The translations under genes were made by a program, and so were the position numbers. A stretch of DNA of 64,000 bases from Vicingaceae bacterium (GTDB lineage Bacteria; Bacteroidota; Bacteroidia; Flavobacteriales_E; Vicingaceae). Where the stretch lies: the NCBI GenBank assembly GCA_965227255.1, contig CBDDFS010000003.1, positions 27,503 through 91,502 on the forward strand, written 5' to 3'. The notes beneath the pieces are model-generated. The model had not been told where the DNA came from. It was given only the letters and a program-made list of their open reading frames with translations, and did not search any database. Positions 14 to 35,105 of this stretch are shown here, piece by piece (position 1 is the stretch's first letter; each line of letters starts with the position of its first letter).

Positions 14-1072
14 TTATCGGAAGACAAAACCATTCGGAGCCACGCCGGCTTCAAAGGATTTGATCTGGTTTCCGTCAATGTCATATACATGCACCATGCC
101 CTTTGCCGTATAATCTTTAGCGTCAGACACATAAATCTCAGTACTTTCAGGATCTACTCCCAATCCATAGGCTGCACTGTAATTTTCGGCATTCGGAATG
201 AACTCGAGGCTCATACCATCATTGACTGAAGTCTTCGATACTCTGTCGGTCAACACAAACAGAATACCACCTCCTCCATTCATAGCGATCTTTTTAGGAT
301 AAGTTGAACCTGGAAGGAAATCATTCTGTACTTCGATAGCACCACTTGTTGGGTTAATTCTCAAAATAGCCGCTTCTATGCTGTTCCATGACTCGCCTTC
401 ACAAAGAACCCATAGCTTACCATTTTTATCCTCAAGAATCTGAGTAGGTGCTTCCGGAGTGTTGATTTCATCTTCCAGGGCAAGACTTTCTTTGTTGTAA
501 ACGAGAATTTTGTTTTTGCCCTTGTTGGCAACAAAGATCTTATCTCCTTTGAGATGCATTCCTTCACACCAATTGTCGACAGCAATACTGCTCTCAATCA
601 TATTTGTATTGGTATTGACAACATCAATGGTATTGGCAACAGGAACTGAATCAGGACCGAAGGCCAAATTTGTAACCAAAGCCTTGCCATTTCCGAGATC
701 AAGAAAGTATCTCGGAGAAGTAAAACCTGTGATCGTTGCTTCCGATTTAAAAGTGTTTTTCTTGACTACCTCTATTTTTCCAGAATTGTTAACAACAAGA
801 TAATAGTACGAGTCGTTTTCACCGATCGACTGCAGCACATCACCAACAAAAAGACCATCATTCATACTCCTGAATAGATTGTCAGTTTTTTCATCGTCAT
901 TACTGAATAAGGTCACCGTGGCATTACTTGCATTAAAAGCACCTTCGTTTACAACTAAAACACCGCTGTCGAGCTTCTTACTTCCCCCACCGTTGCTTCC
1001 TCCGTCATCTTCCTTCTGACAGGCGCTGAATATTACTACGGCCGCTATGGCCAACATGGTTTTGATCTTCAT
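14..1072 (-). CDS. Surface lipoprotein with a YncE-like/DUF5074-type beta-propeller; candidate B12-capture accessory protein
   Basis: 352-aa ORF. Signal peptide ends in a lipobox-like VIFSAC. Repetitive beta-strand-rich blades. Starts 14 nt downstream of the riboswitch-controlled TonB-dependent receptor on the same strand. Confidence 0.75.
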   Translation of the reverse strand: MKIKTMLAIAAVVIFSACQKEDDGGSNGGGSKKLDSGVLVVNEGAFNASNATVTLFSNDDEKTDNLFRSMNDGLFVGDVLQSIGENDSYYYLVVNNSGKIEVVKKNTFKSEATITGFTSPRYFLDLGNGKALVTNLAFGPDSVPVANTIDVVNTNTNMIESSIAVDNWCEGMHLKGDKIFVANKGKNKILVYNKESLALEDEINTPEAPTQILEDKNGKLWVLCEGESWNSIEAAILRINPTSGAIEVQNDFLPGSTYPKKIAMNGGGGILFVLTDRVSKTSVNDGMSLEFIPNAENYSAAYGLGVDPESTEIYVSDAKDYTAKGMVHVYDIDGNQIKSFEAGVAPNGFVFR

Positions 1073-1086
1073 TTTTGTTTAGAGAA

Positions 1087-3036
1087 TTAATTAATATGAT
1101 ACATAAAACTGATTGTATAGTTCTGCAGTGGCATTGGCATGTTTACCACATACTGATATTCTTCATTGAAAAGGTTATTAATCCTGAAACTCAGGACAGA
1201 CCTTGATTTATCAAATCTGAAATGTCTTCCAAATTCGAGTCTGGCCGGAGCCGAATACGGCAGGAATTCCGAATTATCTGTATTGATATAAACTCTACCC
1301 GTGTATGACTGACTGTAATTCGCAAAGTATCTTCCTTTTGTTACCTGGAACATCAGAAAGAGTTTGTGATCCGGTATATAGACCTGCTGGTTTCCTGTGT
1401 ATTCCGGATTGTTGGCATCTTCCTGAATCCTTGAGTCGACATAGGTATACCCCACCTTAAACGTATTGTTCCAGGACTTCAGGTTTAGCATGAATTCATT
1501 CTCAATTTCAATACCGCTGTTTTGAACCGCTTTCACGTTTTGCGGTGTCCATATTCCGTCTGCTCCAGGTGCCCAGTAAATAAGATTCTGTACATCGGCA
1601 TAAAATGCTGAAATAATGTAGCGGTAATTCCATGGCCTTTCTTTTTTACGATGTATTAAAGTGTGATCAAAGCTGATCTCTCCGGATACAGATTCTTCAT
1701 TCTCCAGGTCCGGATTTCCAGCACTCAGCCAAAATCTCTCATTAAAAGTTGGGTACCTCACATTTATTCCGGCATTGAAATAAAGCCACATAGAAGAATT
1801 GCGTCTGTTTGGCATATAACCGGCTGAAAATGAGGGTAAAATTAAAGGGTCTGCTCCATCGAAACTTTCGATTCTGGCACCTGCCTTCAAAAACCAACTG
1901 GACCAATATTGAAATCTAAAGGATTGATAAAAGCTGATCAGATCTTGTTGTTTCAGCTCTTCATAATTATTGGTTTCTGCTTCCTGTAGGTCATATCGAA
2001 ATTGACTCTCTGAAAACCAGGCTTGTCCAAGTTTGTATTCACTATGAATCAAATTATTCCAAGCCCTGATCTTGTTGCGACTATCGATGAGTGAAACAGG
2101 CTTTATGTAAGTCATGAAGTCCTCAAGCACCATGCTGCTCGCATTCAGAATGAACTTATCCTTCTTGCCCTTGTAATTATATGAGACCTTGAACCTATTC
2201 CAGAGATCATATTGACTGGCATCTCCATGATTGGCACCCATAGACGCAGGAACCTCACGTTTTGAGTCTAGATGCCAATATGAAAACTTAAAAGAGCTTC
2301 TTTCACCGGGTTCGATCAATAAATAGGGCATCCACTGAAAGCGCCGGTAGGCGGCATTCTCTCTGTTATCGATCTCATTTCTGTTGGCTTCATTTACGAA
2401 TTCGAAGTCATTATCTGATTCTGTATAATAGACCGACGAAACGAAGGTCAGTTTCTTGTTTTTGGAAACAAATCCGATATCAAAAGGCAGTGTTTTTGTA
2501 TTAAAGCTTCCATATTGTAGTCCCGTTCTGACAAAGACCACCTGTTTCTCTTTGTTCTGATACTGGTCAAGGTCCGGGTACTGTTCTATATCCAGAATAC
2601 CGCCTATTCCACCTGAGGCGAAATTCAATGAATAGGCCCCTTTCATCATTCTTGCCTCTACTGATGTGCCAAAATTCATCAAGGACATATCGGTTAGGCC
2701 CAATTGTGAATTGTCTACAGACATGCCTTCCCAGAAAATTCTGGTGTGATTGGCTGAGTTCCCCCTGTAACTTAAAGTAGAAACCGATCCCGGACCATAA
2801 TCCTTGATATAAATGACGCTGTTCTGATTCAGAAAATCTCCCGCATCAAGTGTATTATAAGAAGCGTATTCCAGCGAGTCAAAATGGATGCTGTGGTCGT
2901 GAGTAATGACTTCAACATAACATTCCTCAACCTGAACTTCGTCCAAAGCAAGCGTATCTATCTGAGCGTGGAGGCTTGAATGGAAACCGACAGATAATGT
3001 AAAAAACCAAAAACCAAGAGGAAATTTCCTCATCAT
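1087..3036 (-). CDS. btuB: TonB-dependent outer-membrane receptor, vitamin B12 (BtuB-like)
   Basis: 649-aa ORF with a signal peptide, a plug region, a beta-barrel pattern rich in alternating aromatics, and a C-terminal aromatic residue region. Lies directly downstream of a cobalamin riboswitch. Confidence 0.85.
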   Translation of the reverse strand: MMRKFPLGFWFFTLSVGFHSSLHAQIDTLALDEVQVEECYVEVITHDHSIHFDSLEYASYNTLDAGDFLNQNSVIYIKDYGPGSVSTLSYRGNSANHTRIFWEGMSVDNSQLGLTDMSLMNFGTSVEARMMKGAYSLNFASGGIGGILDIEQYPDLDQYQNKEKQVVFVRTGLQYGSFNTKTLPFDIGFVSKNKKLTFVSSVYYTESDNDFEFVNEANRNEIDNRENAAYRRFQWMPYLLIEPGERSSFKFSYWHLDSKREVPASMGANHGDASQYDLWNRFKVSYNYKGKKDKFILNASSMVLEDFMTYIKPVSLIDSRNKIRAWNNLIHSEYKLGQAWFSESQFRYDLQEAETNNYEELKQQDLISFYQSFRFQYWSSWFLKAGARIESFDGADPLILPSFSAGYMPNRRNSSMWLYFNAGINVRYPTFNERFWLSAGNPDLENEESVSGEISFDHTLIHRKKERPWNYRYIISAFYADVQNLIYWAPGADGIWTPQNVKAVQNSGIEIENEFMLNLKSWNNTFKVGYTYVDSRIQEDANNPEYTGNQQVYIPDHKLFLMFQVTKGRYFANYSQSYTGRVYINTDNSEFLPYSAPARLEFGRHFRFDKSRSVLSFRINNLFNEEYQYVVNMPMPLQNYTISFMYHIN

Positions 3037-3069
3037 ATTTCGCTTTTAGCCCGAAAGCATTTTTAAAAA

Positions 3070-3235
3070 TACATGGCAGGTCTTCTGACTAACCCCACAA
3101 TCAACGGCCTTCCCTTTCACAGAAAAGTGGCAAAGTATCGTTGACCTCACGGAGATCACAGCAGCGGGTACTGTTCAGGATTCTAACCTGATTCCCTTTT
3201 CATTCGGAATGCGAAAACATTACGAATACCACTTC
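3070..3235 (-). promoter_or_regulatory. Cobalamin (adenosylcobalamin/B12) riboswitch
   Basis: The minus strand carries three conserved blocks. These are aagggaatcaggttagaatcctgaacagtacccgctgctgtga, gccacttttctgtgaaagggaaggc, and the B12 box agtcagaagacctgcc (plus-strand 3075-3090). The element ends about 35 nt before the receptor ATG. Confidence 0.9.
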
Positions 3236-3405
3236 GACAAAAGTATAATTATTATCCGAAAGACTGGAATGATCTAATCTTATTATGAATCTTTTTTCAA
3301 CATCAAGCGTAAAAAAGTCTCTGTTCAAAATTACAAGGCCTAAATTCAAAGTTTTATCTTTGGAGATAGTAAGCCGCAGTTTTGGCATAATAATTTGAAA
3401 CTGAT

Positions 3406-3909
3406 ATGAGGAAGTTGATGATGATAGTGTTGATTGGAAGTGTCTTCCTGGGCGCTAAAGGAGATGATTTGAGGGCCTTTAAGTTTGAAGGAAAGGTATC
3501 AGACAGGTCAAGTGGCAATCCGCTTGAAGGATATGTTGTTGAGGTATATGAGGGAAACAAAGTTGTTCAAACACCTGAAGTGAGTAAGAAAGGAGAATTC
3601 AGCACTGAATTATTTGCAGGCTCCTGGTATACCATTGATGTGAGTCTGGAAGGATATTATCCGAAAAGAGTTGTAGTTCATACCAATGTGCCGGAAGAAA
3701 TTAAAAAAGTACCGACATTTAAGTTTGAGCTTGAGTTGATTCATACCTCTGAATACGATTTCCTTGAGAATCAGGATCCGCTGGCTACATCCATATTTGA
3801 CTTCCCTTATGTGATCTTCGAGTGGGATACCGACATGGAGGACTTCAATTACAGAAGAGCCTATACAGAGCATATTAAAGAGAAGTATGCCGAAGTAGAC
3901 GGCATCTAA
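3406..3909 (+). CDS. Hypothetical secreted protein, possibly with a carboxypeptidase-regulatory-like beta-sandwich
   Basis: 167-aa ORF with an N-terminal hydrophobic signal. GKVSD..G.PLEGYVV.V motif. Confidence 0.6.
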   Translation: MRKLMMIVLIGSVFLGAKGDDLRAFKFEGKVSDRSSGNPLEGYVVEVYEGNKVVQTPEVSKKGEFSTELFAGSWYTIDVSLEGYYPKRVVVHTNVPEEIKKVPTFKFELELIHTSEYDFLENQDPLATSIFDFPYVIFEWDTDMEDFNYRRAYTEHIKEKYAEVDGI

Positions 3910-3979
3910 AGCTACATTGGGAAGGTTTGCATTGCGATCTCTCCCGCCCTGTTAAAGGCGTCCATATCCAAACCCAGGT

Positions 3980-4768
3980 CTACGTCACTTCGTCGAAATA
4001 ATTTAAAAGAGCTTCTGTAGGCATGTTGCCTACCAGTTCATCTGAAGCCATGGGGCATCCACCAAAACCTTTCATGGCTCCATCAAAGCGATAGCACCCA
4101 TTGGTGTATGCGGCATTGATCTTAACCCTCCATTCCGGTGGTCGAATGTGAATATGCGCTCCCAATTCAATATCAGGATAACGTTTAGTTAGATTGCCCA
4201 CGAGATATTCAATGCTTTCTACGGTTGATGTTCCAATAGTATCAGCAAGAGAAACGATTTTGATTCCTCTCTGAGCCATCACATCCATCCAACGAGCAGC
4301 AATCTCTATGTCCCATTCTTCATTGTAAGGATTTCCGAATGCCATGGACAGATATACTACAAGTTCTTTATTCGATTTCACAGAAATGTTCTGAATCACA
4401 TCTATACGCTCAAGTGCTTCTTTGATGCTGGAATTCGTATTTCTCTGCTGAAAAGTCTCAGAAATGGAGAATGGAAAACCGAGATAACTCACTTCATCAA
4501 AATCAGTTGCAATCTCTGCTCCCTTAGAATTGGCTACGATTACAAGCAATTTCGAATTTGTTTGAGAAAGATCCAGCTTTCGAATTACTTCGGCTGTATC
4601 TTTCATTTGTGGAATGGCCTTCGGAGAAACGAAGCTACCCATGTCCAGTGTATCAAAACCAACTTCCAGCAATGACTGAATATACCTGACCTTCTTATCG
4701 GTTGGTATAAAGTCGTGAATGCCCTGCATGGCATCACGTGGACATTCTATGATCTTGACCTTAGACAA
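3980..4768 (-). CDS. Hydroxymethylglutaryl-CoA lyase (HMGL-like family)
   Basis: N-terminus KIIECPRDAMQG and a TIM-barrel DRE-type pattern. GGCP...GN near the C-terminus is typical of HMG-CoA lyases. Confidence 0.85.
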   Translation of the reverse strand: MSKVKIIECPRDAMQGIHDFIPTDKKVRYIQSLLEVGFDTLDMGSFVSPKAIPQMKDTAEVIRKLDLSQTNSKLLVIVANSKGAEIATDFDEVSYLGFPFSISETFQQRNTNSSIKEALERIDVIQNISVKSNKELVVYLSMAFGNPYNEEWDIEIAARWMDVMAQRGIKIVSLADTIGTSTVESIEYLVGNLTKRYPDIELGAHIHIRPPEWRVKINAAYTNGCYRFDGAMKGFGGCPMASDELVGNMPTEALLNYFDEVT

Positions 4769-4792
4769 AATCTATGTATTTGAGATTGAAAC

Positions 4793-5230
4793 TTAGGCGT
4801 CCTTGTTTCCAATGATCAGGATGTTGCAATCCCGAACGCTGGAACCATGTGATTTAGGAGGCGTTGGTAAGATGGTCTTTACTGTGAATTCCTGTGTCGA
4901 TTTCACTTCAAAGTCCCACTGCATTGCAAATTCATGCTCTGTATTATCAAAAAGCACATTGCCATCGCTGTCCAGTAATACCACCTGTATCTTTCCCAGT
5001 GTAGCTTTTGAGCAATTGATCAAACGATATTTTTGTCCACCGTTCAACACAACAACCAGGTCGATCTCTTGTCCCTGAGATACATAGCCCCCATACATTC
5101 TACCACTTACCTGGTAATCTTCCAGCTGATCCTGGCAATTGTTTTTTACGAATGACTTACACTGAGCCTGGGCGGAAAAAGAGGCTATGCTGAGTCCGGC
5201 AAATAACAACAAGTTCTTAATTTTCAACAT
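4793..5230 (-). CDS. Hypothetical secreted protein
   Basis: 145-aa ORF with a signal peptide ending SAQAQ. No recognisable catalytic motif. Confidence 0.6.
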   Translation of the reverse strand: MLKIKNLLLFAGLSIASFSAQAQCKSFVKNNCQDQLEDYQVSGRMYGGYVSQGQEIDLVVVLNGGQKYRLINCSKATLGKIQVVLLDSDGNVLFDNTEHEFAMQWDFEVKSTQEFTVKTILPTPPKSHGSSVRDCNILIIGNKDA

Positions 5231-28400: not shown

Positions 28401-29898
28401 GGGAAATATGTTTCTGCAGAATGCCGAAGCCCTCGTTGAATACACGAATGTGCATTACAAATTCAAGAATAGCGTATTACTCGGTGACATGATTCCGGTT
28501 AAGATCAACAGCGACAGTATTTCAATACCCAATTTTAAGTTGGTTGATAAATTCGAAAATACAGGTCAGGGAAGTGTGTATTTCATTCACAACGGATTTA
28601 AAACTTTCAGAACTGAGCTTAGGATCAAATCAGACAAGTTGTTCGTCATGAACACGAAGAAAACCGACAACGACCTCTATTACGGTAAGGCTGTTATTTC
28701 TGGTGATGTCTACATTGAAAGTGAAAAAGGCAAGTCGTATCTGGATATGGACATTGTAGCCGAAGAAAAAACAGTTTTCAGCCTTCCCATGGTAGACAAG
28801 TCTGAGGTAACAGAAAATGAATTTGTTGTTTTCACAACACGGGAAGAAGATGAGGAAATCATCGTTGAAGAAAAAGAAAAGACCTTTGATGTCACACTTG
28901 ACATGAGACTCGAAATTTCACCAAAAGCCATGGTGCGTCTGGTTTTTGATGAATTTGAACAGGACGTGGTTGAAGCCAAAGGAAGTGGTGTTTTGAACAT
29001 GCATTACGATCCAAAGAACAGTTTATCTCTCCAAGGAGAGTACACGCTGAATTCCGGAAACTACGTCTTCAGACTACAATCCGTGGTAAACAAGAGATTC
29101 ATCATTGAACCGGGAAGCAAGATCAAATGGAATGGCGATCCATACCGAGGCGAAATGAACCTGGTTACAACCTATAAGACCAGAGCCAGACTGATAGACA
29201 TATTACCAGAGATCTATTCTGATGTGAACTACAAAAGAAATATACCGGTTCACCTGCAACTAAAGATGACGCAGACTATCGAAGAGCCCGTCATCGGTTT
29301 TGAGGTATATCTACCCGAATCGAATGAAAATGTGCGACAACAGCTAAGGGCAGAGTTATCAGACGAGACCTGTCTAAACCAACAGGTATTCGCCCTGCTG
29401 ATCCTTACCTCATTCTACCCTTGTGAGAATTTTGAAAATAGTCCAACTACAGCAGCAGGCCGTGAAACTGCCTTTGAAGCCATGTCGAACCAGTTGAGTG
29501 GTTGGTTATCAAACATCAATGAAAATGTGGATGTAGGTATTTCCTACACTCCGGGAGAAGAAGGAGAAACTCCCGATCAGCTTGAAGTTGCGGTGTCGAC
29601 TCAATTATTCAATGATCGGGTCGTTCTTGACGGGAACGTGAGTAGTGGAAACCAGACACAAAGCAATCCGGACCAGGTTGCCGGTGAGGGAAGCATTGAA
29701 TACCTGATACGTCCTGATGGAAAACTCAGCGTGAAGGTTTTTAATAAAGTAAATGAAAGAGCCTACATAGAGAATGATGATCTCTACATTCAGGGGGTGG
29801 GATTAAAATGGGTGCATGATTTTGGTGGAAACAAAGCTAAAGGCACAAGAAAGGAAGAAGAGGAGATTTTGGAGGAAGAGGTTATAGATGAAGAATGA
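25471..29898 (+). CDS. tamB: Translocation and assembly module protein TamB-like (DUF490 family)
   Basis: 1475 aa. GTG start, N-terminal anchor helix, long beta-rich body and a conserved C-terminal DUF490-like region. Divergent from tsaD, as is common in Bacteroidota. Confidence 0.8.
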   Translation: MSKSIKKAYRALIVGMDVILLIYALVVFALQINYFQSLTGKAIAKYLSKEWNAYVDIDRTEITFFNRLVLDELIIKDRLSDSLLYSRETDIGLELNLFKSRKFSIQSICLSDPKINLKREGEKEDFNFKFLIDYFSSSDTISPPLKLGIDHFEIINGHFNMNDETKKQKSGNSFDPSHLAIRELNLYVNDLQIDSNLYQVNYIKLSMKEQDFQLDNLTASISASDKGINIHDLHIQSPKSEVHAYIDLKTDNWQSYQNPLSDVNFKIRFLPSDMSTTDLAYFVPDLRGMRDIPEVKGEFSGSVDRLNGKDVQLSLADHSRVSLDFKLQGLPDFEETFIYMDVKNLYTSKRGVEKIKIPPFEQNNYIQLPENFGRLGRVNFSGKVAGFPRNLVVNGKIRTAIGQINTDLELKADSTFAYSGRIAAIDFNAGRFLDVEDRLGNVNLEAEIEGQGLSKDDVDAHLSGNILSMYFNQYNYRNVALSGDFVKETFTGSIGIRDKYVDLDFIGKIDLSEEDYVFNFNSKINHIYPKIVLAANQVDSTAHIQASLNIDMRYTNIDSLFGSFIVDDLVYKDFEDTISVSNFTFNSRRDGPIKHHSIRSDILDFNLDGRYDMLDGYKTVKKLLKTYVPNAIDEDIQVDKDFSFSLNMKDYSLLEKMISPGLSVDSGTYAQGWFKSKDDNFELNSQIIGFRKDNIKVDSTDLKLWADGDKLSLKSKISRYAIGKSTQDRYIDISSVVKDNRIENEMTSYGSGPFSSQIYLENYVFDHNTVGFRFLDTEFKADSLIWMMHDSNYVLFDSSSWSFQNFQVSRGNQSIGINGRISRNSWDKIELALDSFNLNQLNPFVEEAKVSLEGNITGYASLTDVYNERLFESNLSFMELRFNEKFLGSGHIISNWNEEDKRLDVDGEISHKGVDKIDFNGYYSTRKKDSPLNFELALIDLPLNVLEPFTKDILSEFGGSATGQFELTGTLSEPNLQGNMFLQNAEALVEYTNVHYKFKNSVLLGDMIPVKINSDSISIPNFKLVDKFENTGQGSVYFIHNGFKTFRTELRIKSDKLFVMNTKKTDNDLYYGKAVISGDVYIESEKGKSYLDMDIVAEEKTVFSLPMVDKSEVTENEFVVFTTREEDEEIIVEEKEKTFDVTLDMRLEISPKAMVRLVFDEFEQDVVEAKGSGVLNMHYDPKNSLSLQGEYTLNSGNYVFRLQSVVNKRFIIEPGSKIKWNGDPYRGEMNLVTTYKTRARLIDILPEIYSDVNYKRNIPVHLQLKMTQTIEEPVIGFEVYLPESNENVRQQLRAELSDETCLNQQVFALLILTSFYPCENFENSPTTAAGRETAFEAMSNQLSGWLSNINENVDVGISYTPGEEGETPDQLEVAVSTQLFNDRVVLDGNVSSGNQTQSNPDQVAGEGSIEYLIRPDGKLSVKVFNKVNERAYIENDDLYIQGVGLKWVHDFGGNKAKGTRKEEEEILEEEVIDEE

Positions 29899-29962
29899 AG
29901 GATGAAGGGTGAAAGATGATAAATTATAAATGTTAAATGGTAAATGGTAAATTATGGATGTT
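29886..29962. repeat. Heptanucleotide array of 11 phase-locked units (RRATGRW-like)
   Basis: Units are agatgaa gaatgaa ggatgaa gggtgaa agatgat aaattat aaatgtt aaatggt aaatggt aaattat ggatgtt. The tamB stop (29896-29898) lies in unit 2. Confidence 0.9.
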
Positions 29963-30014
29963 GAAATGCATCTTGATTCCTGTATATTCGCACTCCACCC
30001 TATTTAACCAAGTT

Positions 30015-30617
30015 ATGATCAAATCATTCAAAACCGGCCTTATTCTTTTCATTTCACTTACTCTGAGCGCCAGTGTAGCCTTCAGTCAGGATTACAAAAC
30101 CAACATAGAAACATCTTTTGGGGAATACCTGGATCATTTGATGAACAAGGAATTTGAGCAGTCTTTGGAATATTTAACACCGGAATTCTTTGAAATCTTT
30201 CCAAAGGATAAAATGATCATGGCCATGGAACAAGCATTTAACAATCCGGGCATGAAGTACGAGATAATAAATCCGGAAATTTTAAGTGTTGGCGATAAGG
30301 TTGAAATAGAATCGAAACACTACGCTCTTATCACGTATTCAAATCAACTGAACATTAAATTTCTCAATGAAGAACCTGAAACCGATGAAGAAAAAGAATT
30401 GCGCTTAAATATGACCCAGGGTCTCTTGAAAACCAATTTTGGTGAGGAAAATGTAGTTCTCAATAATGAAACCGAATTTTTTGAAATTCAGTCTCAAAAA
30501 GACGCCTATGCTATTTCGGAAAACGGATCTTCAGACTGGAAGTTTCTTGTTATTGAAAAAGATCAAAAACCTATTCTGGAAAAATTACTTCCTGCTGAAT
30601 TGGCAGAGAAGATATAG
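30015..30617 (+). CDS. Hypothetical secreted protein
   Basis: The internal ATG at 30015 precedes the signal peptide MIKSFKTGLILFISLTLSASVAFSQ. The upstream part of the ORF-track model lies in the heptamer array. Confidence 0.65.
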   Translation: MIKSFKTGLILFISLTLSASVAFSQDYKTNIETSFGEYLDHLMNKEFEQSLEYLTPEFFEIFPKDKMIMAMEQAFNNPGMKYEIINPEILSVGDKVEIESKHYALITYSNQLNIKFLNEEPETDEEKELRLNMTQGLLKTNFGEENVVLNNETEFFEIQSQKDAYAISENGSSDWKFLVIEKDQKPILEKLLPAELAEKI

Positions 30618-30779: not shown

Positions 30780-33700
30780 ATGTATCTGATTTTTGACACC
30801 GAAACGACCGGTTTACCTAAGAATTATAATGCGCCGTTAACGGACTTTGATAACTGGCCTCGAATGGTTCAGTTGGCCTGGCAGTTGCATGATGAGAATG
30901 GGGAATTGATCAGTGTTGAGAACTACATTGTAAAACCAGATGGATACGAAATTCCTTTCAATGCTTCCAAGATCCATGGTATCACTACAGAAAGAGCTGA
31001 GAAACAAGGCCTTGATCTTAAGGAGGTGCTCGATAAGTTTTCAGGAGACCTGGAGAAATGTCAATTCGTTGCCGGACATAACATATCCTTCGATCTTGCC
31101 ATTGTTGGATGTGAATATCTGCGTTGCGAACTTGAGAATAAACTCGAAGGCATCAAGGATCTTGACACCAAAGATGCAGGTACGGAATATTGCGCCATCC
31201 CCGGTGGTAAAGGAGGCGGATATAAATGGCCACGATTGGATGAACTGCATAAAAAGCTTTTCGATGAAGGCTTTGATGAAGCCCATAACGCCGCTGCCGA
31301 TGTTGAGGCGACAACACGCTCCTTCCTTGAAATGATCCGTCTGGGCCTGATCGGTCCCAAAGAAACAGGTCTTGACCCCTCCTACTTTGAGGAATTCAAA
31401 GAAAAGAACCCAAAGCCATTTAAGGCTATAGGATTGAATGTTCAGCCTTATGATCCGGGAGAACTGGAAGAAAGTCAGGAGTCCGAAGAAAAAGGTCAAA
31501 GGTCAGAAGAGACATCACCAAATAACCAAATAACCGAATCACCAGACAATACTCAGGAATCTGGAATCAGGAATCAGGAATCTGAAATCTCAGAAGCTTT
31601 GTCTTCTGAGTATGTCTCCCTACACAACCATACCCAATTCTCAATTCTTCAGGCTACTTGTGAGGTAAACAATCTGATCGATAAAGCCAAAGAATTTGGT
31701 ATGAAGGCCCTTGCTATCACCGACAAGGGAAACATGTTCGGTGCATTCAAATTCCAGCAGGCAGCGAGTAAGGCAGAGATCAAACCCATCATTGGTTGCG
31801 AATTTTACGTTTGTGACGACCATACAAATAAGAGCGTTAAAGATGACGGAAACATGCTGGTTCTGCTTGCAAAGAATCAGAATGGATACCGCAACCTCTG
31901 TAAAATGAGCGCCATTTCTTTCCTCGACGGTTTCTACTATGTTCCGAGGATTGATAAAGATGTTTTATTGGAGTACAAAGAGGATCTCATTGCCTTAAGT
32001 GGCGGACTGAGAGGTGAACCTTCAAGGCTTCTATTGAATCACGGTGAAAAAAGAGCTGAAGAGTCAATTTTGTGGTACAAGGAACACTTCGGGCAAGATT
32101 ACTATCTGGAACTTCTTCGCCATGGTGTTGAAGAAGAAGATGTTTCGAATGAATTTTTTATTCGAATGTCACAAAAACATGACGTGAAAGTCATAGCTCA
32201 GAACAACGTATTTTACGTAACTCCTGACGACGCAAAGGCTCATGATATTCTGCTGTGTGTCAAGGATAATGCCAAACAGAGCACGCCCATAGGTAAAGGA
32301 CGGGACAAGAGATATGGCTTTCCAAATAATGAATTCTCTTTTAAGTCACCTGCCGAGATGTCGGAGCTTTTCAAGGATATCCCGGAGAGCATCAGCAACA
32401 TCACAGAGATTGTTGACAAGGTTGAAGAATATCAATTGAAAAGAGATGTTCTGCTTCCTGCCTTTGAAATTCCGGATGAATTTGAAACGGAAGATGATTA
32501 TCTGAAGCATTTGACCTACGAAGGTGCAAAGCAACGATATGAGGAAATCACTCCTGAGATCAAGGAAAGACTTGATTTTGAGCTGGAAACGATCAAGAAT
32601 ACCGGTTATCCCGGTTACTTCCTGATCGTGCAGGATTTCACCTCTGAAGCGCGAAAAATGGGCGTAAGTGTGGGGCCCGGCCGGGGGTCGGCAGCCGGGT
32701 CGGCTGTGGCTTATTGCATTGGAATCACAAATGTTGACCCCATCAAGTATGACCTGCTTTTCGAGCGTTTTCTCAATCCCGACAGGATATCCCTTCCTGA
32801 TATTGATATTGACTTCGATGATGAAGGACGAGGAAAGGTCATTGACTTCGTTGTGGAGAAATACGGCAAGAATCAGGTGGCTCAGATCATCACCTATGGA
32901 TCCATGGCTGCCAAATCAGCGCTTCGGGATACGGCTAGAGTACTTGAGCTTCCGTTAAGCGAAGCCGATCAATTAGCCAAGATGATGCCAGATACCAAAC
33001 TGAAGAAAATGTTTGGTATGGAAGACAAGGCGTTGAAAGAAAAACTGGGTGCTGAGCAGTTCGAAAGAGCTCAGCAAATGAAAGAAATTGCGAAAGGTAA
33101 CGACCTGCAGGCCAATACGATAAATCAAGCTACCGTACTTGAAGGTTCACTTAGAAATACAGGCACGCATGCTTGTGGTGTGATCATCACTCCGACGGAT
33201 ATGACGGAACTGATTCCGGTGGCCTCGGCCAAAGATGCCGACCTGATGGTTACTCAATATGACAACAGTGTCATTGAATCGGCAGGGATGCTGAAAATGG
33301 ACTTCCTGGGACTTAAAACCCTATCCATTATCAATCATGCTATTCGTCTCATTAAAGAAAAACACGGTGTTGAAATTGATGTAGATGAGATTCCTTTGGA
33401 TGACACCAAGACCTACGAGCTATACCAACGGGGTGAAACGAACGGAACCTTCCAGTTTGAGTCGCCTGGTATGCAGAAGCATCTGAAGGCGCTTAAACCT
33501 GATAAATTCGCCGATCTAATTGCCATGAATGCCTTGTACAGGCCAGGACCAATGGAGTATATTCCAAACTTCATTGCAAGAAAACAAGGTCGTGAGGAGA
33601 TCACTTACGATATCGATGATATGGAGGAATACCTGGCAGAAACCTATGGTATTACTGTGTATCAGGAGCAGGTGATGCTATTATCCCAAAAGTTGGCAGG

Positions 33701-35105
33701 TTTTACCAAGGGTGAAGCTGACGTTCTGCGAAAGGCCATGGGTAAGAAGATCTTCGCCCTACTGGATCAACTCAAGCCTAAGTTTCTTGAAGGGTGTGAG
33801 AAGAACGGTCATGACAAAGTGGTTGCCGAGAAGGTCTGGAAAGACTGGGAAGCCTTTGCCGCCTATGCCTTCAATAAATCGCATTCTACTTGCTACAGCG
33901 TCATTGCATTCCATACTGCTTACCTTAAAGCTAACTATCCGGCTGAATACATGGCCTCTGTGTTGACCAACAACATGAATGATATTAGCAAAGTGGCTTT
34001 CTTTATGGAAGAATGTAAGCGACTGAATATTCCCGTATTGAGTCCGGATGTAAATGAAAGTCATATTCACTTTACAGTGAACAATGAGGGAGCAATTCGT
34101 TTCGGGTTAGGGGCTGTAAAAGGAGTTGGTGAAGCGGCTGTTGAAATCATGATTCAGGAAAGAAATCAAGGCGGAGCCTTTACTTCACTCTTTGATCTGG
34201 TGCAGAGAGTAGATCTTCGTTCGGTGAATAAAAGGACGCTGGAAAGTTTGGCCATGGCCGGTGCTTTTGATGGTTTCGATAATGCACACAGGGCACAGTA
34301 CTTTGCGACCGACGAACTGGGCAGAACGGGCATTGAATTGGCAGTCAAGTTTGCAAATGCTGTCAAACAGTCAGAGAATTCCAGCCAAATAAACATGTTT
34401 GGAGAGGAAAGCAGTTACGAAGTGACAGAACCTGAATTGCCCAAAACAGAAGAATGGGGTACCATGGAATTTCTTTCCAAAGAAAAAGAAGTTGTTGGTG
34501 TATATATTTCAGGGCACCCGCTAGATGACTATAGATTGGAGATAGAGAATTTCACCAATGCCAATCTGACCTTCCTGAATCAGGTCGACTATTTCAAAGG
34601 AAGGGAGATGAAGTTTGCAGCCACAGTCACAGGATCCAGGCATGGAATGACAAAAAGAGGAAAACCATTTGGAGTGCTTACACTCGAGGATTACTCAGAG
34701 AGTCAGGAGATTTTCCTATTTGGAGAAGACTATGTTAATTTCAAGAACTACATGGTCGTGGGCTGGCATTTGTATGTTCATGGCAAAGTGATGGAGCATA
34801 AATTCAAGGAAAATGAATGGGAATTCAAGATTGCCAAAATCGAGTTACTCAGTGACCTTAGAGACAAAATGGCACGAAGCATTACCTTAAATGTTCCAGA
34901 AACCACTGTAAATGAAGATTTTGTGCAGAAAATTGGTGAGATCAGTGACAAACATAAAGGCAAGGTTCAGCTTGTGTTGAAGCTCCTCGATAAAAAGGAG
35001 AAACAAGTGGTGGAACTGCGCTCCAGAAGCAAGAAAGTGAATATAACAGATGAATTCCTTGAGGAATTATCAGGACTTAAGGAAGTCAATTATACAATCA
35101 ATTAA
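30780..35105 (+). CDS. dnaE: DNA polymerase III alpha subunit (DnaE, PHP + pol + OB) with a fused N-terminal DnaQ-like DEDDh 3'-5' exonuclease domain
   Basis: 1441 aa. Exo motifs are FDTETTG (ExoI), GHNISFD (ExoII) and HNAAADV (ExoIII) in aa 1-190. A low-complexity linker spans aa about 225-275. The PHP start is VSLHNHTQFS, followed by canonical DnaE blocks (GPGRGSAAGS, PDIDIDF, LKMDFLGL, FNKSHS). Confidence 0.9.
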   Translation: MYLIFDTETTGLPKNYNAPLTDFDNWPRMVQLAWQLHDENGELISVENYIVKPDGYEIPFNASKIHGITTERAEKQGLDLKEVLDKFSGDLEKCQFVAGHNISFDLAIVGCEYLRCELENKLEGIKDLDTKDAGTEYCAIPGGKGGGYKWPRLDELHKKLFDEGFDEAHNAAADVEATTRSFLEMIRLGLIGPKETGLDPSYFEEFKEKNPKPFKAIGLNVQPYDPGELEESQESEEKGQRSEETSPNNQITESPDNTQESGIRNQESEISEALSSEYVSLHNHTQFSILQATCEVNNLIDKAKEFGMKALAITDKGNMFGAFKFQQAASKAEIKPIIGCEFYVCDDHTNKSVKDDGNMLVLLAKNQNGYRNLCKMSAISFLDGFYYVPRIDKDVLLEYKEDLIALSGGLRGEPSRLLLNHGEKRAEESILWYKEHFGQDYYLELLRHGVEEEDVSNEFFIRMSQKHDVKVIAQNNVFYVTPDDAKAHDILLCVKDNAKQSTPIGKGRDKRYGFPNNEFSFKSPAEMSELFKDIPESISNITEIVDKVEEYQLKRDVLLPAFEIPDEFETEDDYLKHLTYEGAKQRYEEITPEIKERLDFELETIKNTGYPGYFLIVQDFTSEARKMGVSVGPGRGSAAGSAVAYCIGITNVDPIKYDLLFERFLNPDRISLPDIDIDFDDEGRGKVIDFVVEKYGKNQVAQIITYGSMAAKSALRDTARVLELPLSEADQLAKMMPDTKLKKMFGMEDKALKEKLGAEQFERAQQMKEIAKGNDLQANTINQATVLEGSLRNTGTHACGVIITPTDMTELIPVASAKDADLMVTQYDNSVIESAGMLKMDFLGLKTLSIINHAIRLIKEKHGVEIDVDEIPLDDTKTYELYQRGETNGTFQFESPGMQKHLKALKPDKFADLIAMNALYRPGPMEYIPNFIARKQGREEITYDIDDMEEYLAETYGITVYQEQVMLLSQKLAGFTKGEADVLRKAMGKKIFALLDQLKPKFLEGCEKNGHDKVVAEKVWKDWEAFAAYAFNKSHSTCYSVIAFHTAYLKANYPAEYMASVLTNNMNDISKVAFFMEECKRLNIPVLSPDVNESHIHFTVNNEGAIRFGLGAVKGVGEAAVEIMIQERNQGGAFTSLFDLVQRVDLRSVNKRTLESLAMAGAFDGFDNAHRAQYFATDELGRTGIELAVKFANAVKQSENSSQINMFGEESSYEVTEPELPKTEEWGTMEFLSKEKEVVGVYISGHPLDDYRLEIENFTNANLTFLNQVDYFKGREMKFAATVTGSRHGMTKRGKPFGVLTLEDYSESQEIFLFGEDYVNFKNYMVVGWHLYVHGKVMEHKFKENEWEFKIAKIELLSDLRDKMARSITLNVPETTVNEDFVQKIGEISDKHKGKVQLVLKLLDKKEKQVVELRSRSKKVNITDEFLEELSGLKEVNYTIN
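31517..31589 (+). repeat. Octamer x4 then heptamer x5 array inside the dnaE exonuclease-PHP linker
   Basis: Octamers are accaaata accaaata accgaatc accagaca (31517-31548). Heptamers are aggaatc tggaatc aggaatc aggaatc tgaaatc (31555-31589). Together they encode NNQITESPDNTQESGIRNQESEIS. Confidence 0.8.

Follow-up and report, generated by a model that had tools for sequence, protein, structure and literature searches.

Heptamer and octamer repeats in the tether of an exonuclease-fused DnaE1 replicase from a Vicingaceae bacterium

We analysed a gene at 30780-35105 on the forward strand of a 64,000-nucleotide (nt) stretch of DNA from a Vicingaceae bacterium (the window; contig CBDDFS010000003.1, positions 27,503 to 91,502). 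The gene is an open reading frame (ORF) of 1441 aa plus stop, and it joins a DnaQ-like exonuclease to the replicative polymerase DnaE1. We consider it very probable that this is a DnaE1 of ancient type that proofreads in cis and has a degenerate PHP domain, and that its disordered tether was later colonised by the heptamer and octamer repeats of its lineage; on this account the arrays are no relic of the fusion. A single polypeptide would thus comprise a full DnaE1 replicase and, tethered at its N-terminus, a DEDDh 3'-5' exonuclease, the tether being made of two parts, a conserved and folded extension (residues 191-225) and an unconserved, acidic and disordered stretch (residues 226-277). Colonisation of the disordered stretch would have taken place in the lineage of this genome and of its nearest relative, the metagenomic protein P0002, and its source would be a DNA-level process that plants arrays of heptamers and octamers, about five copies each, in the DNA between genes. 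The tether would have gained roughly 15-20 residues in this way, selection passing only those versions that preserve the frame and are free of stops.

A proofreading exonuclease in the DnaE1 chain

An earlier note on this DNA, made from the letters alone, had proposed that dnaE carries a fused DnaQ-like DEDDh exonuclease, and domain searches confirmed this. In the single 1441-aa frame, Pfam RNase_T (residues 3-180, E 7e-11) is followed by PHP (residues 281-448, 31620-32123), by the DNA_pol3_alpha and finger domains of the polymerase core (residues 573-844 and 847-1010, 32496-33809) and by the HhH and OB-fold domains (HHH_6, residues 1084-1173, and tRNA_anti-codon OB, residues 1281-1357; 34029-34850). 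Residues 276-1435 matched the NCBIfam DNA polymerase III alpha equivalog NF004226 at 1294.5 bits, above its cut-off of 1002, and the fused DnaE scored far under the cut-offs of the PolC models (248 against 873 and 235 against 1043). The exonuclease domain (residues 1-190, 30780-31349) stands N-terminal to the PHP domain, which begins at residue 281 after a linker of residues 191-277, and is not inserted in it. All three DEDDh motifs lie where the earlier note had placed them, within residues 1-190 (FDTETTG at 5-11, GHNISFD at 99-105 and HNAAADV at 169-175), and none of D6, E8, D105, H169 and D174 varies among 120 fused homologues.

We modelled residues 1-475 with AlphaFold2 from an alignment of 68 sequences (mean predicted local distance difference test score, pLDDT, 86.9). 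The exonuclease domain was predicted with pLDDT >90 and the chain was confidently folded from residue 1 to about residue 225. When the N-terminal part of the model was searched with Foldseek, it matched DnaQ, epsilon, TREX2 and RNase T, and the PHP part matched DnaE structures, with an engineered E. coli alpha-epsilon chimera at the top. When the exonuclease sequence was compared with the PDB, the best match was DnaQ, a weak one (E = 0.0045), and the fold search was needed to place the domain.

The linker falls into two parts. Residues 191-225 (DPSYFEEFKEKNPKPFKAIGLNVQPY, 31350-31454) form a C-terminal extension of the exonuclease domain that is conserved and structured: N210, I217, G218, L219, P223 and Y224 are nearly invariant in the homologue alignment, pLDDT averaged over ten residues lies between 84 and 97 across residues 191-220, and helices are predicted at 193-196 and 200-209. 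Residues 226-277 (31455-31610) form a variable acidic tether that is predicted to be disordered. The tether shows no conservation among the 120 homologues, and pLDDT falls below 50 over residues 232-261. Its length varies as well, the variable part having a median of 32 aa (range 22-75) among these homologues, of which P0002 (75 aa) and the present protein (P0001, 53 aa) have the two longest.

How would this polymerase proofread? Three ligands of the PHP metal site are kept (H282, H284 and E341), and six of the nine are replaced (Q291, K316, M359, G409, N476 and F478 in place of the D, H, H, C, D and H of unfused relatives). From these residues the PHP domain is probably inactive, with six of its nine metal ligands lost, and proofreading would then be supplied in cis by the DnaQ-like domain. 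Decay of the PHP site tracks the fusion: at least five of the nine ligands are missing from all 11 fused cores compared, and all 25 unfused cores keep them (at least 96% at every position). The fused gene is the only DnaE1 of the genome, its paralogue being DnaE2-like and about 30% identical. Two further RNase_T (DnaQ-like) ORFs were found in the genome, at C2:755363-755824 and C2:1575001-1575468; they comprise a 461-aa protein with an extra C-terminal region and a 266-aa stand-alone protein.

Repeat arrays in the linker and across the genome

Three arrays lie in the tether DNA. Tandem Repeats Finder (TRF) detected a mini-array of AAAGGTC (2.1 copies, 31491-31505), an octamer array (31517-31544, period 8, 3.5 copies, score 42) and a heptamer array (31556-31590, period 7, 5.0 copies, score 49). 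In the sequence itself the octamer block extends over 31517-31548 and consists of ACCAAATA twice, ACCGAATC and ACCAGACA (accaaata accaaata accgaatc accagaca), and the heptamer block extends over 31555-31589 with five GGAATCW units (aggaatc tggaatc aggaatc aggaatc tgaaatc) that encode QESGIRNQESEIS. The earlier note had listed these octamers and heptamers correctly and had translated the region correctly as SPNNQITESPDNTQESGIRNQESEIS; it left out the 6-nt gap, atactc, that separates the two blocks. The arrays are imperfect (85-89% matches, about 4-5 units). Codon shuffling, 2000 times over the whole gene and 2000 times over the linker alone, never produced a period-7 or period-8 array scoring at least 42.

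We counted TRF arrays scoring at least 40 in the 3.23-Mb assembly and found that period 7 far outnumbers every other tandem-repeat period (203 arrays), with a further 63 arrays of period 8. These 266 arrays have a median of 5.3 copies and 37 nt. The heptamer arrays reduce to 48 canonical units, and the commonest unit in the genome is GGAATCT (about 20 loci), that of the dnaE linker; the octamer ACCAAATA recurs at 7-9 loci, and GGAATTC, a unit of the P0002 linker, occurs at 17 loci in this genome. The linker arrays are thus of the same kind as those of the intergenic spacers, as the earlier note had held. Where they depart from them is in placement, since 260 of the 266 arrays lie outside long ORFs. 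Only six fall inside, compared with 64% of random 35-nt segments, and two of the six are those of the dnaE linker. The only other strong in-ORF array of the genome lies in the MnmE/TrmE gene (C2:1432008-1432045), where GAATTCG, in 5.4 copies and in frame, encodes LNSEFGVRNSEFG in a surface loop of the G domain before the NKxD motif.

Three considerations suggest that the repeat process acts on DNA and not on protein: (i) periods of 7 and 8 nt are no multiples of three; (ii) the linker units are the commonest intergenic families of the genome; and (iii) so few arrays fall in long ORFs, the MnmE loop being the second case. Survival of arrays in the linker would be explained by a flexible tether that accepts nearly any polar sequence.

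Array positions relative to genes were computed on an approximate ORF-based gene set. The median distance of arrays was 26 nt to stop codons and 80 nt to starts, and arrays were over-represented in convergent spacers, a placement that hints at a role or origin at gene 3' ends and not at starts; on the same grounds we rejected the possibility that they are translation-start elements. Per spacer, array density was about three times higher in convergent (tail-to-tail) than in divergent spacers, and one quarter of the arrays overlapped a stop codon or began within 1 nt of one. The flanks of 20 GGAATCW arrays were unrelated, and a simple transposon or mobile-element origin, of the kind seen in miniature inverted-repeat transposable elements, was rejected. 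Two unlinked GGAATCW arrays, at C5:32136-32166 and at 31553-31590 of the window, have their variant units in almost identical order (GGAATCT GGAATCA ... GGAATCT GAAATCT), which is unexpected under local slippage and hints at copying between loci.

Comparison with other fused proteins indicates that the arrays are secondary. Relatives' linkers are likewise acidic and rich in Ser and Glu. Among eight fused reference genomes TRF found linker arrays in this gene only, and in the linkers of 62 named fused loci it found no strong array, the best being ACAGAAA with 72% matches and a score of 37. Against G013, the closest reference genome, the residues that the repeats encode fall in an alignment gap, and the residues that flank the arrays are collinear with relatives' linkers on both sides. 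The linker of P0002 contains two different heptamer arrays, GGAATTC and ATCGGAA, each in 5.4 copies and encoding SESGIRNSEF and NIGNRTSEIGDRKS, and the P0002 contig has five more arrays in its spacers. On the contigs of P0003 and P0005 (71% identity) arrays are present in spacers and absent from the linker, and the P0006 contig has no arrays at all. In 100-kb samples, period-7/8 arrays numbered none in G013, one in G017 and none in G009 and G014, against 8.2 per 100 kb in this genome. Since linker arrays are limited to this genome and P0002, and the array habit is itself patchy, the repeat habit would be younger than the fusion and the linker arrays younger still. A peptide repeat of another kind, DSEKMINE DSEKMINE DTEKIQ with a 24-nt period, occurs in the tether of the fused DnaE of P0047, from a metagenome-assembled genome of Bacteroidota; with this case the tether is a general hotspot for repeat expansion.

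The linker arrays bear an apparent mark of selection. Each ACCAAATA junction creates a TAA, in frame 2 at 31523 and in frame 1 at 31531, and a perfect third octamer would bring TAA into the dnaE frame at 31539, where the actual codon is TCA. Judged from these codons, the change of the third octamer at exactly the would-be TAA is a sign of a selection filter on the arrays. Gain or loss of any single unit truncates the protein, at residues 254-294. Because such changes truncate an essential protein, the arrays would have had to grow through compensated changes or several units at once, such as three.

A unit of 7 or 8 nt displaces the reading frame, and the linker could accordingly be imagined as a slippage-prone switch, in which a one-unit change splits the exonuclease from the polymerase and DnaE restarts at an in-frame TTG (Leu274, 31599-31601). 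One extra heptamer does bring TGA into frame three codons ahead of this TTG, and a split form is present in the complete genome G419. If true, this reading would imply a heritable low-fidelity, mutator or two-subunit state of the replicase. Yet the arrays are short and imperfect, the gene is the sole DnaE1, single-unit changes truncate this essential protein, and arrays across the genome go with stops and not with starts. Nor do fused loci have a conserved internal start. The earlier note had suggested that DnaE may initiate separately at this TTG, which it put at about 31603; the codon exists, four nucleotides upstream, and it is the sole in-frame ATG, GTG or TTG between 31476 and 31640, but separate initiation there found no comparative support. 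An in-frame ATG lies within 12 codons of the PHP start in 3 of 67 fused loci, GTG and TTG codons near the PHP start of these loci show no excess over ordinary Val and Leu codons, no conserved internal DnaE start emerged across the 67 loci, and P0002 has no in-frame start at that position. We therefore regard such a switch as very improbable. No more credible is the general claim that the linker arrays reversibly uncouple exonuclease from polymerase by slippage, together with its milder version, in which heptamer arrays are installed as multi-unit blocks by copying; the milder version prefers blocks to stepwise slippage because single-unit steps are lethal in the linker.

Could the repeats instead reflect selection on the protein for a low-complexity Ser/Glu/Gln tether, or chance? 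The acidic, Ser/Glu-rich linkers of relatives would fit, as would the natural seed GAA-TCT (Glu-Ser) and the GAAGAATCTGAGGAA found at the corresponding place in G013, but units of 7 or 8 nt are each read in all three frames, are identical to the commonest intergenic families, never arose in the codon shuffles and have no counterpart in the 62 other linkers of similar composition, so that we give this explanation almost no weight against colonisation by the genome's own repeats.

Age of the fusion and evidence against later origins

The fusion is widespread. A homologue search with residues 1-280, limited to full-length proteins at E <=1e-3, returned 6,788 matches. Among the matches listed, 120 of 120 carry RNase_T and DnaE domains, and Crocinitomicaceae, Salibacteraceae, Vicingaceae, Flavobacteriales, Cytophagales and Bacteroidales figure among the names of their sources. 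Of 401 sampled Bacteroidota genomes, 150 had an exonuclease-domain orthologue (E <=1e-20), about 110 times in open frames of at least 1395 aa (fused) and about 40 times in frames of 190-270 aa (free-standing). Among the named fused loci are those of Winogradskyella, Psychroserpens, Gillisia, Flavobacterium, Elizabethkingia, Chryseobacterium, Kaistella, Persicobacter, Roseivirga, Cyclobacteriaceae and Balneolaceae; the named hosts span Flavobacteriaceae, Weeksellaceae, Crocinitomicaceae, Cryomorphaceae, Schleiferiaceae, Cyclobacteriaceae, Persicobacter and Balneolaceae.

We built an IQ-TREE tree of 36 DnaE cores (11 fused, 25 unfused) from which the exonuclease and linker had been removed. All 11 fused cores fell in one clade with support of 100/100, in which this genome is sister to P0002 (97/93) and G013 branches next. 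By this phylogeny the fusion is an apparently ancient, single-origin exonuclease-DnaE1 architecture of Bacteroidota. Both states occur within one family: G013, G017, G009, G006 and G007 have a fused DnaE with a degenerate PHP domain, and G014, G016, G010, G011, G008, G005, G012, G001, G015 and G018 have an unfused DnaE with all nine PHP ligands. The unfused DnaE of this family fall into two separate clades of the tree. This pattern of cores suggests that the replicative polymerase gene may have been replaced within one family.

The earlier note had read the linker differently, as a spacer between adjacent exonuclease and dnaE genes that came to be translated when the stop codon was lost. In favour of such a recent fusion, the linker arrays belong to the genome's own intergenic families, an array block after the exonuclease gene would look typical because arrays usually lie just past stop codons (median 26 nt), and G419 has exonuclease and dnaE in separate frames. 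The evidence from relatives nevertheless contradicts it. The fused clade and the 6,788 fused homologues make the single-origin fusion, already published in 2014, far older than the arrays; relatives' linkers are shorter and non-repetitive, the repeat segment being an insertion relative to G013 whose flanking residues stay collinear with those linkers; and a gene that split and then fused again in this lineage would have needed two extra events. No adjacent-gene precursor was found in the 13 genomes with a free-standing exonuclease orthologue, where the orthologue and dnaE are on different contigs or 143-230 kb apart, and in close relatives the upstream neighbour of dnaE is tamB, in a conserved run tsaD-tamB-dnaE-trxA-DUF58. 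The earlier note had named an ancestral fusion with non-repetitive linkers elsewhere as a result that would speak against its account, and this is what the comparison across Bacteroidota found. We thus consider a recent fusion most unlikely, and retain late colonisation of an old tether as the better explanation.

What, then, of G419? At its locus (L053, G419:C1:907168-911551; 654-5100, reverse strand) an exonuclease frame of 225 aa and a dnaE frame of 1272 aa share about 40 nt. A single frameshift, of the one-base type, inside the conserved DP.YF..F segment parts them, and the sister genome G247 is intact. On this comparison, G419 is best described as a frameshifted member of an otherwise fused gene family and not as a precursor state. 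G419 is a complete genome, and its split may stem from an error in sequencing or be natural, with exonuclease and DnaE as a pair.

Between tamB and dnaE the window contains a 226-aa ORF (29937-30617) whose start is overlapped by heptamer arrays (29887-29967). A Pfam search of this ORF gave no match. On the contigs of P0002, P0005 and P0006, dnaE directly follows tamB and the ORF is absent from between them.

Several points weigh against the reading that we prefer. The activity of the exonuclease, the inactive state of the PHP domain and the disorder of the tether are predicted from sequence and a model. The reading gives no account of how three arrays entered an essential ORF, where they would presumably have grown by compensated changes or several units at once. 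The arrays of this gene and of P0002 may be homologous or may have arisen independently. Family assignments of the coded reference genomes (G001-G018, loci L002-L023) rest on database labels. The locus itself could be an artefact, with a frameshift or stop in the repeats that makes two genes, or with repeats that were mis-assembled, as short tandem repeats are prone to be. Such an artefact seems highly unlikely: the frame is intact through three arrays with conserved protein sequence on either side, the gene sits on a 292-kb contig of a genome that is 97.6% complete, and the sister gene of P0002, with in-frame arrays of its own, was assembled identically from two independent runs.

Significance and comparison with known systems

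The fusion was already known, so that the finding of a fused exonuclease adds little by itself. The interest lies in the tether. As a disordered part of an essential gene it offers a natural 'neutral window' that records the repeat-generating process of the intergenic DNA, as the MnmE loop does likewise. The overlap of repeats and gene would show that (i) the repeat process acts on DNA whatever its coding status and selection filters afterwards; (ii) arrays can arise through frame-preserving steps or come as blocks; and (iii) the tether of a replicase tolerates large changes of sequence and length. In addition, a family in which fused DnaE with degenerate PHP and unfused DnaE with intact PHP coexist provides a natural comparison for the shift of proofreading from PHP to DnaQ.

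The closest known system is the exonuclease-fused DnaE1 of Bacteroidetes. Timinskas et al. (2014, NAR 42:1393, PMC3919608) describe the exonuclease as joined to the N-terminus of PHP by some 60 linker residues, in Bacteroidetes only, and the fusion was judged independent of PolC; a 2026 NAR survey (PMC12926913) describes an inactive PHP in DnaE1 as complemented by either a built-in DnaQ domain or a separate DnaQ. The present protein agrees in its same-chain DEDDh domain, its linker to the PHP N-terminus, its full DnaE1 domain set, its unconserved PHP metal site and its host in Bacteroidota, and its architecture shows no difference. What differs is the variable tether, here the second longest of 120 homologues and partly made of 7- and 8-nt tandem arrays, a feature that does not figure in the parts of the two papers that were available.

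In E. coli Pol III alpha-epsilon (chimera 4GX8/4GX9), a DnaQ-fold proofreader is likewise flexibly tethered on a PHP domain with a degenerate metal site. E. coli epsilon binds PHP through its own flexible C-terminal segment, whereas the tether here is natural and covalent, in the order exonuclease-linker-PHP, and the exonuclease is distant in sequence from the solved DnaQ domains. PolC of Firmicutes also has an intrinsic DnaQ-type exonuclease in a C-family replicase; there it is inserted inside the PHP domain and here it stands ahead of it, an independent event.

The arrays themselves resemble the heptanucleotide long simple-sequence repeats (LSSR) of Mrazek, Guo and Shah (2007; as summarised in PMC4679880), the short tandemly repeated repetitive sequences (STRR) of cyanobacteria, and the TAACTGA repeats that the same source, MacGregor (2015, PMC4679880), reports from Beggiatoaceae, Cyanobacteria and Bacteroidetes. 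In all of these, a few heptamer families form short head-to-tail arrays at many loci, almost all of them intergenic, with a patchy distribution over lineages and an unexplained mechanism; the linker arrays, too, consist of head-to-tail units within the 5-11 nt, mostly 7, that define LSSR and STRR. In contrast to the TAACTGA repeats, the units here are GGAATCW, AGATCAT, AATTCCG and others, and the arrays concentrate at the 3' ends of genes and in convergent spacers and not at start codons. A further contrast, to all three classes, is that arrays here also sit in frame within the gene of an essential replicase. Architecture and repeat class are each known already, and what is new, modestly, is the overlap of the two within one essential gene.

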